A stretch of DNA of 64,000 nt from Candidatus Spyradenecus sp. Lineage in GTDB: Bacteria > Verrucomicrobiota > Verrucomicrobiia > Opitutales > UBA953. Shown here one piece after another: positions 18,001-21,000 of the stretch. Made by a program: the position numbers. Position 1 is the first letter of the stretch, and every line of letters starts with the position of its first letter. Location: positions 160,001-224,000 of the forward strand of contig JAZSKX010000018.1 of NCBI GenBank assembly GCA_045535075.1, given 5' to 3'.

Positions 18001-21000
18001 GCGGCGTTGAAGCGGCGACGTCGAATTATAGATGTGAACGATTGCCTGCTTCATTCCTCGGAGAGCCTCAAAGGTTCGGCGAATCAGATGTTCGCGGCAT
18101 TGAACGAGGACTTGAACCGTTACGTCGTCCGGAATCAGATTTTGTTCGACGAGCGTTCGCGCGAAAGTGAATTCCGTATCGGACGCGCTCGGGAAGCCGA
18201 TTTCGATTTCTTTGAATCCGATATCGCAAAGCATTTTAAACATCTCGATTTTTTCTTCGACGTTCATCGGAACGGCGAGCGACTGGTTCCCGTCGCGCAA
18301 ATCGACGCTACACCAAACGGCGGGTTTTGTAATCGAATTATTCGGCCATCGGCGATTCGGCAAATCAATCGTCGGGAACGGCGCGTATTTCGTAATTTTT
18401 TCGTGTTGCATAAATTATATTTTTTAAAGGTTTTTAAAAATGCCGTGCGTCAAAAATCGCAAAGCGGAAGATTGTTTTTTCGGGAACGTTCCCGTAAGTT
18501 CGGCGTTGAAAAGCGGTCGCCTAAGCCGCAGAAAAAAGCTTACTCCCCCACGGGGAGAAGCAAAAAATCAAGACGAAGTCGGCTGTCGTTGAAAAAAATC
18601 ACGTTGGGTAAGAAAATCTCGCTTTTCCGGGAACTTGTCAAGAGCGCGTTCCCGCCGAGTCGATTTCAAGATTGCTTAAGCAGAGACTTCGCTTAAACTT
18701 TATCGAATCATGAGAGCCGCGAAACCCAAGGCAGACGTTCCCGCACTAACAACAAAAATTCAACCTTCCGAAGACGGGCTTATCCATATCGATAAAGATT
18801 TCGTCGCCGCGTTGCCGTTGCTTCAGTATGAGGGAAAAATCGAGCTCATTACCGACGAAAAAGCAGCAAAAAAAGCGGTTAAGGCACTTATGAAGGAAGA
18901 CGTGCTCGGCTTTGACACGGAAACCCGTCCCAGTTTCAGCCGCGGGAACTCTTACCTGACTTCGCTCGTCCAGCTTTGCGGAAGAAAATGCGCCTACCTT
19001 TTCCGCCTTGATTATTGCGGCGGCGTTCCCGTGCTTTTTCCGATTTTTGAAAATCCGGACATTCTCAAAGTCGGTGTTGCCGTTAAGGAAGATGTTTTGC
19101 ATCTGAAAAAGCGTGCGCCTTTTGATGATGCCGGATTCGCGGACGCCAGCACTTACACGCGAAAAGCCAAGATCGAAAACACCGGTTTGCGTGCGCTCTG
19201 CGCTTATTTCTTGGGCGGGAGAATTTCCAAAAATGCGCAAGTCTCCAATTGGGCGGCAAAGACGCTGAGCGAACAGCAGATTATTTATGCGGCAACGGAT
19301 GCATGGATTAGCCGCGAACTGTTCCTAAAACTGCGGGAGCTCGGGATTGCGCCTCAAAAGATTTCACGCAAATCAATCTGTGAACCGGAACCGAAAAAAA
19401 TCGTTCCCGTAAAAAAAGAACCCAAAGGCTTCGACATGGCGGAAGTCCTCGGCGAAACCGCTTCCAAAAGACGGCGAGGACGCGGGAGAAGGAGAAATTC
19501 TACAAAAACGGACACCGCCGCATAGCGGGAATCCGAAAATCGGCATGACTGCCGTTCCCGTCACATTTGCTTCTTTATCAAAGCAAGCAATTACTCCTAT
19601 AAAAAAACGTTCCCGCAAGATGCTTTACGGGAACGTTTTTCTCCTTAGCGGCGGCGGGGTGCAGGGCGTGCGGGCGTTGCGCCGACCGGTTTCGGTGCAG
19701 AGCTACGGAGGCGATAAGTGATACGCGCCTGCGTAATATCTTTCGGATCCATTTCAACGCGCACCGTGTCACCGACAAAAATTTTGATAAAGTTTTTGCG
19801 AAGCTTCCCGGAAATATGCCCGAGAACAACGTGCTTGTTCGGGAGTTCAATACGGAACATCGTTCCCGGAAGAACCGCCACGATTTTACCTTCTAATTCG
19901 ATAAGACCTTCAGAATTCGCCATGTATAGTTGTAATGTTTCAGAAAAATTAAAGTTTTATAATCTTATTTCAATTACATCGCGTCAACGGAGAACTTACG
20001 GGCGTTCCCGCAAGCAATTTTTCGGTTCGCATTATTCGTAGTTTCAATTCTTTTCCCTAATCGCTAGACTCGTCGGCATGAAAACTTTATTTCAAAAAAT
20101 CGCCGATCGAGAAATTCCGGCAAAGATTGTTTTTGAAGACGATCTGTGTTTCGCGATCGAAGACATCAATCCGCAAGCGCCCGTTCACATTCTCGTCATC
20201 CCGAAACGCGTTATTTCGCGCCTCGGGAACGCCGGAGAAAGCGATGCCGCCCTGCTCGGGCATTTACTCGTCGCCGCCGCGAACATTGCGCGGGAACGCG
20301 GGATTGACGCGAGCGGATTCCGCACCGTTATCAACAGCGGGCGCGACGCGGGAGAGACCGTCCCGCACCTGCATGTTCACCTTCTCGGCGGGCGCCCGCT
20401 TGCGTGGCCTCCGGGCTGATTAAATTTTCGCCGTTGACTTCCTTTACAAAAAACGTTTTCATTCGACGCTTCAAATAATTTCACTTTATTAACAGACCGC
20501 AATGGCCAACATCAAGTCAGCACAAAAGAACATTCGTAAATCCGCGACCAATGCGAAGCGCAACCGCTCCGTGAAGAGCCGCATTAAGACCGTCGCTAAA
20601 AACGCGAAGCAGGCAATTGCTTCCGGCAATGCGGAAACCCTCAAGGCAGTAACGCCGATCTGCGCGTCCGCGTTTGACAAGGCGACGAAATCCGGAGTTA
20701 TCCACCCGAACAAGGCCGCGCGCATGAAATCGCGCCTTGCGAAAGCCGCCAACAAGGTTGCCGCCGCTCAATAAATTCTTTTTCAACGAAAGCAGCTCTC
20801 TTTCTTCACGGGAAGAGAGCTTTTTTCGTAAATAACGATGGCGATTCCCACACATTTAAGTTTTCCGCCCGGAACACTTTCGGAGAGTGCGATGCGTCTT
20901 GCAATTCTCCACGCTTCTGCGGGAACGGTCGCGCTTGAAAAGCCGGCGGGAACTTCGGAAATCGGCAATTTATTTCGCGCACAAATTACCGAGGGGAAAC

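Follow-up and report, generated by a model that had tools for sequence, protein, structure and literature searches.

In Candidatus Spyradenecus sp. (Verrucomicrobiota; Opitutales), leuA is preceded by a short reading frame that is rich in leucine codons and ends on a hairpin. Is leucine sensed by a ribosome on this leader, and how would the outcome be passed on to leuA? The survey's finding read the arrangement as a leucine attenuator of a kind undescribed in the phylum. Our comparisons support the sensing part of that claim, and our literature search found no paper on this element, nor on such a leader in Verrucomicrobiota, although some copies may be listed in comparative surveys or in the supplements to these. 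However, leucine leaders upstream of leuA that lack a terminator and carry a pseudoknot have already been published as the LEU element (PMC1262725, in its accessible text). All coordinates given below refer to the window, the whole 64,000-nt stretch of contig JAZSKX010000018.1 that was analysed (positions 160,001 to 224,000).

The leader, its promoter and leuA

The leader ORF lies on the minus strand at 18602..18540 (contig 178540-178602) and comprises 20 codons from GTG to TAA (18542-18540), five of which encode leucine (at 18578, 18572, 18563, 18560 and 18557). Coordinates, start codon, length and peptide were all reproduced from the survey's finding. A CGA-Leu codon pair at 18581-18576 recurs in many leaders; across leaders, CGA is the commonest codon at position −8 and the second commonest at −7 and −1, and it makes up 9% of the Arg codons of the genome. 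On the same strand, a −35 hexamer (TTGACA) is located at 18636..18641, 39 nt upstream of the leader GTG, from which the transcription start was placed at approximately 3 nt upstream of this codon. The promoter proposed earlier thus stands as far as the −35 hexamer is concerned, but the −10 region upstream of the leader is a poor match to the consensus and the promoter is absent from the listing of a consensus scan.

Downstream of the leader we confirmed leuA (16735..18411, minus strand), encoding a 2-isopropylmalate synthase of the yeast type with 558 aa that scores above the cut-off of TIGR00970. Its start lies 146 nt from the Leu-Pro hairpin described below and is not preceded by a Shine-Dalgarno (SD) motif. 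The probable target of the leader is leuA. Directly past leuA, a hairpin with a U tract was read from the sequence (16676..16716, minus strand); as this is a probable transcript end, leuA looks monocistronic. The leuB gene (14848-15948, minus strand) is found 0.8 kb beyond leuA and is probably outside the control of the leader, because the terminator-like hairpin and a gene on the opposite strand intervene. Between leuA and leuB, a 185-aa ORF (16102-16659, plus strand) encodes a protein whose N terminus resembles a signal and which contains repeats rich in Gly, Lys and His; no NCBIfam match was found for it.

The leader ends on a core hairpin of 6 bp with a 3-nt loop (18543..18557, minus strand), confirmed here, in which the Leu-Pro codon pair makes up the 5′ arm. 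The stem extends to 10 bp with one bulge (18538..18561, minus strand; −14.0 kcal/mol), includes the leader stop codon and runs directly into a U6 tract (18537-18532), so that a consensus scan scores it as terminator-like. The earlier statement that no intrinsic terminator follows therefore holds for the stretch between the pseudoknot (see below) and leuA, but not for the hairpin itself. The U6 tract is combined with a full G−10 Y−1 G+1 pause consensus, read by eye (18539, 18530 and 18529; together 18529..18539, minus strand), which ends just upstream of the pseudoknot, and we regard the two as a candidate RNA polymerase pause site or weak terminator. Compared to shuffled sequences, the 221-nt leader as a whole folds only modestly better (z −1.83), and the case for the element consequently rests on comparison.

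A third hairpin at 18481..18494 (minus strand) is built from a GCGGGAACG-type motif that is over-represented genus-wide; it is followed by A's rather than U's and is probably not specific to the leucine element. The octamer GCGGGAAC has 4032 copies in the 1.95 Mb source genome, with two one-letter variants present 568 and 280 times, and a 9-mer containing it is the commonest of the genome (3244). In the window we counted 137 copies, for instance at 18481-18494 and 16676-16716. Copies lie in ORFs in 82% of the cases, in all frames, and the octamer builds terminator-like hairpins. Its 7-mer core occurs 3.6 times per kb in the genus loci vs 0-0.43 per kb in 11 other loci; the octamer resembles a DNA-uptake-type or HIP-like signal specific to the genus.

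Distribution within Opitutales

We found leuA in 108 of the 151 genomes of the order and compared 110 loci, namely the first 30 leuA loci and the upstream DNA of 80 out of 95 further ones. The tallies of the survey's finding among the first 30 were reproduced, with the hairpin in 16 of 19 genus loci (L007 is cut short; L018 and L019 lack it) and in seven of 11 loci from other genera and families. Over the whole set, a strict pattern matched 45/110 loci, and a looser filter, asking for the Leu-Pro arm, the G arm, a stop within nine codons and at least two Leu, matched 64/110 in 15 of 26 families. Since this filter was written after seeing the misses of the strict pattern, the conservation of core positions among the 64 loci is in part by construction. 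One of the 46 negative loci is cut short, and many have a promoter or another gene directly upstream. By eye, other near-leaderless leaders containing Leu were seen before leuA in six of seven loci of families f23 (L102, L106, L107, L109) and f17 (L103, L104, L108); these end on longer stems, more like the alphaproteobacterial type.

Across 16 family members, the six core pairs hold in 99% of the cells with one two-sided change, at locus L021. A two-sided pair change in the core hairpin was also found in a CUG-Leu variant of Gammaproteobacteria. The stop codon is situated in the loop, right after Pro, in 30/64 loci, and three to seven codons past Leu in the others. A likeness of the stop-containing loops to the Leu anticodon loop was considered and dropped, as about half of the loci carry other loops. 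Within the genus, the hairpin is terminator-like with a U tract in 16/16 loci, compared to a U tract in 7/48 loci elsewhere. The pause consensus was present in 26 of the 64 loci and in 15 of 64 in a shifted control, a mild enrichment only.

A covariance model gave one strong site per genome, and this site was the leuA leader in the 13 genomes with checkable coordinates. In the source genome, three weak model matches lie in or across coding regions, and the leuS gene of this genome has no such leader. Among named records, those that share both the element and the LeuA type carry the titles Opitutales, Puniceicoccales or Cerasicoccus. Elsewhere in the phylum, outside the order, the pattern occurred at about control level and none of the 30 loci examined adjoins leuA or leuS. 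Judged from these sequence comparisons, the element is a real, conserved cis-element. As for its description as an Opitutales element, it is indeed present across the order, but its core also occurs in other phyla, its pseudoknot had been missed and its hairpin is terminator-like in the genus.

Probable selection for leucine in the reading frame

At codons −7 to −2 of the 64 leaders, Leu makes up 46% in frame vs 13% and 2% off frame, and 9% at codons −14 to −9. Ile and Val account for 2% and 1% at codons −7 to −2. The Leu codons vary (CTT 105, CTC 90, CTG 64, CTA 29, TTG 23, TTA 5), with five of the six used more than 20 times each, and it is therefore the amino acid and not the codon that is kept. 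Some leaders contain few Leu codons: within the last ten codons, only three are Leu in eight leaders and only two in another two. These locus counts treat kin as separate, and kin are not independent.

An in-frame ATG or GTG was found 33-53 nt after TTGAC in 62/64 loci, compared to 0 and 1 in the other frames, and the spacing is 35-42 nt or less in 48 of those loci. This position of TTGAC makes a near-leaderless transcript likely. In the source genome, TTGAC-to-start distances peak at 35-44 and 60-64 nt, and the genome is SD-poor: of 1334 ORF starts, 113 are preceded by an SD-like motif (control 66). A contig from an RNA run of one relative spans the leader and leuA, which indicates neither transcription nor its level. 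All in all, the conserved short ORF, the in-frame Leu enrichment, the Leu-Pro hairpin arm, the linkage to leuA and leuS, and a pseudoknot at a fixed distance from the Leu codon argue by comparison that leucine is very probably sensed by a ribosome translating the leader.

A predicted pseudoknot at a fixed distance from the last Leu codon

Downstream of the hairpin we predict an H-type pseudoknot (18502..18529, minus strand), a feature that is absent from the earlier description of the element. Its stem S1 pairs 18529-18526 with 18516-18513 and S2 pairs 18521-18518 with 18505-18502. In the window the stems count only 4+4 bp; they are longer and covary in the congeners L014, L016 and L023. With canonical geometry and a fixed position, criteria that were chosen post hoc after a loose score, such a pseudoknot was found in 32/64 loci of the order vs 7.65 expected, and in 10 and 11 in shifted windows. 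Within the family it is present in 19/19 loci, and outside the genus in 16/48 (5.4 expected). When pseudoknots were scored without constraints, real and shuffled sequences were not set apart (34.5 vs 31.1), and nine of the 64 loci beat all their shuffles.

The pseudoknot starts 25-33 nt past the last Leu codon (sd 2.1), compared to 4-24 nt past the stop (sd 6.1). In these sequences its position is thus tied to the last Leu codon and not to the stop. Both stems show several pair types over 29 distinct versions, all paired by construction. A first MAFFT alignment misplaced the S2 strands and was left out of the counts; in a second alignment S2 was paired in 68.8% of the cells, a value lowered by a one-column register shift. 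The ends of the second alignment were trimmed by predicted structure, so that the hairpin and pseudoknot pair counts made on it are not independent.

The same core in other phyla

Among 80 of the 92 matches of an exact-pattern scan of GTDB that were examined, we found, besides leuA of the order, three bacterial-type leuA loci, titled Solirubrobacteraceae, Chromatiales and Porticoccaceae, and one leuS locus (Cloacimonadota). In the order to which the Solirubrobacteraceae genome belongs, the filter accepts 27 out of 29 leuA loci, and in one further locus the stop comes later. In the family of the Porticoccaceae genome, 5/6 leuA loci pass, four of them with a compensatory CUG-Leu arm, and in the family of the Cloacimonadota genome the core precedes leuS in 7/7 loci. 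These leuS leaders (L403-L409) mostly have an SD of their own and only 2-5 Leu codons. A search for the CUG variant placed five of 31 matches before leuA, three of them in Nevskiales. Two further collection scans, in each of which 80 of more than 120 loci were examined, were swamped by repeat hairpins: one yielded two matches before leuA, both already known, and the other none before leuA or leuS.

The pseudoknot was found in 17/27 loci of the order of the Solirubrobacteraceae genome under relaxed criteria (1.4 expected) and, under criteria near those used for Opitutales, in 3/3 Nevskiales loci, two of which are near-identical. Elsewhere it is mostly absent (one of seven Cloacimonadota loci; neither of the two non-Nevskiales CUG-variant loci tested). 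Model R1, a covariance model built from 16 family members, gave 37 matches in 312 kb, most of them on the leaders described here, and most of its cross-phylum matches were weak (E 0.001-0.9). None fell on actinomycete or alphaproteobacterial leaders, and L210, L211, L212, L215 and L217 gave no match at E≤1.

Because the same core precedes a different LeuA family as well as leuS in other phyla, the element appears to follow leucine and not gene descent. The core is short, and the cross-phylum copies may be homologous or may be convergent. A more speculative and rather doubtful extension is that the Leu-Leu-Pro hairpin, with its downstream pseudoknot, forms a portable, undescribed leucine-sensing module in at least four phyla, one that serves leuS too and does not depend on which LeuA family is present; a single conserved sensor would then feed different outputs, namely SD release for genes with SD boxes and pause/Rho control for genes that lack them. 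In the boldest form of this idea, the hairpin would act on the ribosome itself, competing with Leu-tRNA as it refolds at the decoding site. Its persistence in leaders that have no more than two or three Leu codons would then be explained.

Comparison with known leucine leaders

The closest published counterpart is the LEU element of Seliverstov et al. 2005 (PMC1262725), a terminator-less Leu leader with a pseudoknot before actinobacterial leuA whose mechanism, in the accessible text, was left open; mutations in the S. coelicolor leuA leader reportedly gave results inconsistent with classical attenuation. Shared features are a leader ORF with a Leu run before leuA, a pseudoknot and, going by that text, the lack of a classical terminator/antiterminator pair. 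In the element studied here, however, a separate Leu-Pro hairpin of 5-6 bp closes off the ORF and the entire pseudoknot is located downstream, whereas in L211 the pseudoknot, by eye, overlaps the last codons of the leader. Loci of Opitutales also lack the base stem between Leu run and SD (SD in 5/64; duplex at shuffle level), and model R1 detected no match in sequence or structure. Copies in the order of the Solirubrobacteraceae genome bridge both types, having the local hairpin as well as SD pairing.

Classical leu attenuators (leuL, RF00512) share with the element a short leader ORF with a Leu run ahead of leuA and, as far as structure goes, a first hairpin that overlaps the Leu control codons and could pause or protect. 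In Salmonella leuL, a protector hairpin is followed by the same pause consensus (PMC9291695, accessible part), and Streptococcus leuA leaders belong to the classical type according to the available text of PMC5314783. In contrast to these, the element has a probably near-leaderless start and no Rfam match. The lack of a match had been reported by the survey and was confirmed, but carries little weight, as Rfam also misses the LEU-element-type leaders in L211 and L212. By nested folding, no conserved antiterminator was found over the 64 loci, the partner of the freed G arm scattering from +5 to +241. A separate downstream intrinsic terminator was not found in the window; such terminators occur in 5/16 genus loci and 10/48 other loci, at scattered places.

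Alphaproteobacterial leuA is reportedly preceded by leucine leaders termed LEU1 by Lopatovskaya et al. 2010, with a pseudoknot or a long stem over the stop of the leader. Alphaproteobacterial leaders are likewise terminator-less with a structure at the end, and some (L209, L213) end with Pro-stop on a C-rich arm. They differ, by eye, in that the long stem or pseudoknot overlaps the stop, with no short hairpin plus separate pseudoknot, and they are not matched by R1. The described cases of mycobacterial poly-Cys attenuators and of tnaC rely on SD occlusion or on an arrest at the stop that the peptide induces. They resemble the element in a start at or near the 5′ end and in control that needs no intrinsic terminator, but the element has no SD to occlude and its peptide is unconserved except for the Leu-Leu-Pro end. 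The poly-Cys attenuators are leaderless small ORFs (PMC13236596, in part), and the Rho-dependent tnaC is named in the accessible text of PMC1262725. By the features tested, the element probably works like a ribosome-mediated leucine attenuator, most like the LEU element, and would not count as a member of either the LEU element or the classical attenuators.

Possible routes from the leader to leuA

We tentatively regard the element as a leucine gauge that is read by the ribosome and whose output is non-classical and probably exerted at the level of transcription, a reading that falls somewhat short of probable. As to the nature of that output, pausing combined with Rho-dependent termination is favoured over the four rivals discussed below, as a possibility held with slightly more reserve still. 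The ribosome would load at the 5′ end of a near-leaderless transcript, while the hairpin, like the protector/pause hairpin of classical attenuators, would keep RNA polymerase waiting immediately upstream of the pseudoknot for the ribosome to arrive. With plentiful Leu-tRNA, the ribosome would reach the stop and depart, exposing the naked C/U-rich leader and the hairpin, and Rho would end transcription in the 110-370 nt ahead of leuA. Upon leucine shortage, the ribosome would stall on the Leu codons, melt the hairpin and mask the leader; the pseudoknot would leave too little open RNA for Rho, and leuA would be transcribed. A rho gene is present in the source genome (the main one on contig C2), and a second rho-like gene lies at C8:182313-183404 (412 bits, below cut-off). 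C exceeds G downstream of the hairpin in 61 of the 64 element-positive loci; in the comparison with a control, the counts were 57/64 vs 30/45 element-negative leuA loci, a weak difference, and the bias in the window is slight (C 0.23, G 0.18).

The hairpin and U tract might instead form an intrinsic terminator that gives way to read-through when it is melted directly by a ribosome stalled at the final Leu codons. The terminator-like shape in all 16 genus loci, with 10 bp and −14.0 kcal/mol in the window, speaks for this, and the accessible text of PMC1262725 describes leader ORFs overlapping terminator hairpins for actinobacterial ilvB. However, outside the genus the U tract accompanies the hairpin in only 7/48 loci although the hairpin is kept there, and RNA polymerase on the U tract would still enclose the stop codon, so that the ribosome could not have left. 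With this terminator the response would also have the wrong sign for a biosynthetic gene, because rapid translation would open the hairpin and stalling at earlier Leu codons would leave it free to form; overall we consider this route unlikely. Translational control as proposed for the LEU element, in which a ribosome on the Leu run keeps it from pairing with the initiation region of leuA, fits the order of the Solirubrobacteraceae genome: an SD is present in 27/27 loci, the duplex of Leu run and SD reaches −16.7 vs −11.7 kcal/mol in shuffled sequences, and SD accessibility is 0.32 free and 0.53 stalled, with a gain above 0.2 in 13/27. As modelled, the output in that order looks translational. 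For Opitutales we judge the same route quite unlikely, given an SD before leuA in only 5/64 loci, hence none to sequester, a duplex of −4.6 vs −4.1 kcal/mol in shuffled sequences, start accessibility of 0.58-0.60 in all modelled ribosome states (five gains and seven losses among 64) and the SD-poor source genome.

Stalled ribosomes stabilise mRNA at erm leaders. By analogy, a stalled ribosome could keep RNase E away from the near-leaderless 5′ end or from the U-rich spacer, with the pseudoknot limiting decay; an RNase E/G gene is present and the spacer after the hairpin is unpaired and U-rich in the genus. This is the least likely of the readings, since most other families lack a U-rich spacer, no RNase J scores above the cut-off in the source genome, and the spacer would be covered more fully by a ribosome at the stop than by one positioned on Leu codons. 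Very unlikely, too, is that the ORF is incidental and the hairpin and pseudoknot are the binding site of a regulatory protein, as suggested for the LEU element. The core sequence is conserved far beyond pairing needs, and the authors of that paper favoured a protein on account of S. coelicolor mutants (PMC1262725, accessible text), but the Leu enrichment is frame-specific with synonymous change and the promoter-start spacing is seen only in frame. Moreover, the variants (L021 and the CUG variant) alter third codon positions and keep Leu-Pro, although the filter favoured such variants.

Other candidates were rejected. A fusion of leader and leuA by read-through or frameshifting does not agree with a leuA frame that is open to the leader stop in only 18/64 loci, which differ in frame and do not include that of the window. 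Neither a classical antiterminator nor a start-accessibility switch was consistent over the 64 loci (nested folding, no pseudoknots), and RNase J protection was dropped as no such gene scores above the cut-off in the source genome.

Significance

None of these leaders is covered by Rfam. The leader extends what is very probably ribosome-mediated amino acid sensing to an order and, by the literature searched, to a phylum for which we found no earlier report. It may be seen as a compact form, with covariation, of those leucine leaders without a terminator for which the 2005 LEU-element paper, in its accessible text, left the mechanism open. As the same core occurs with and without an SD partner, a U tract and a pseudoknot, these loci would form a natural deletion series for the role of each part.
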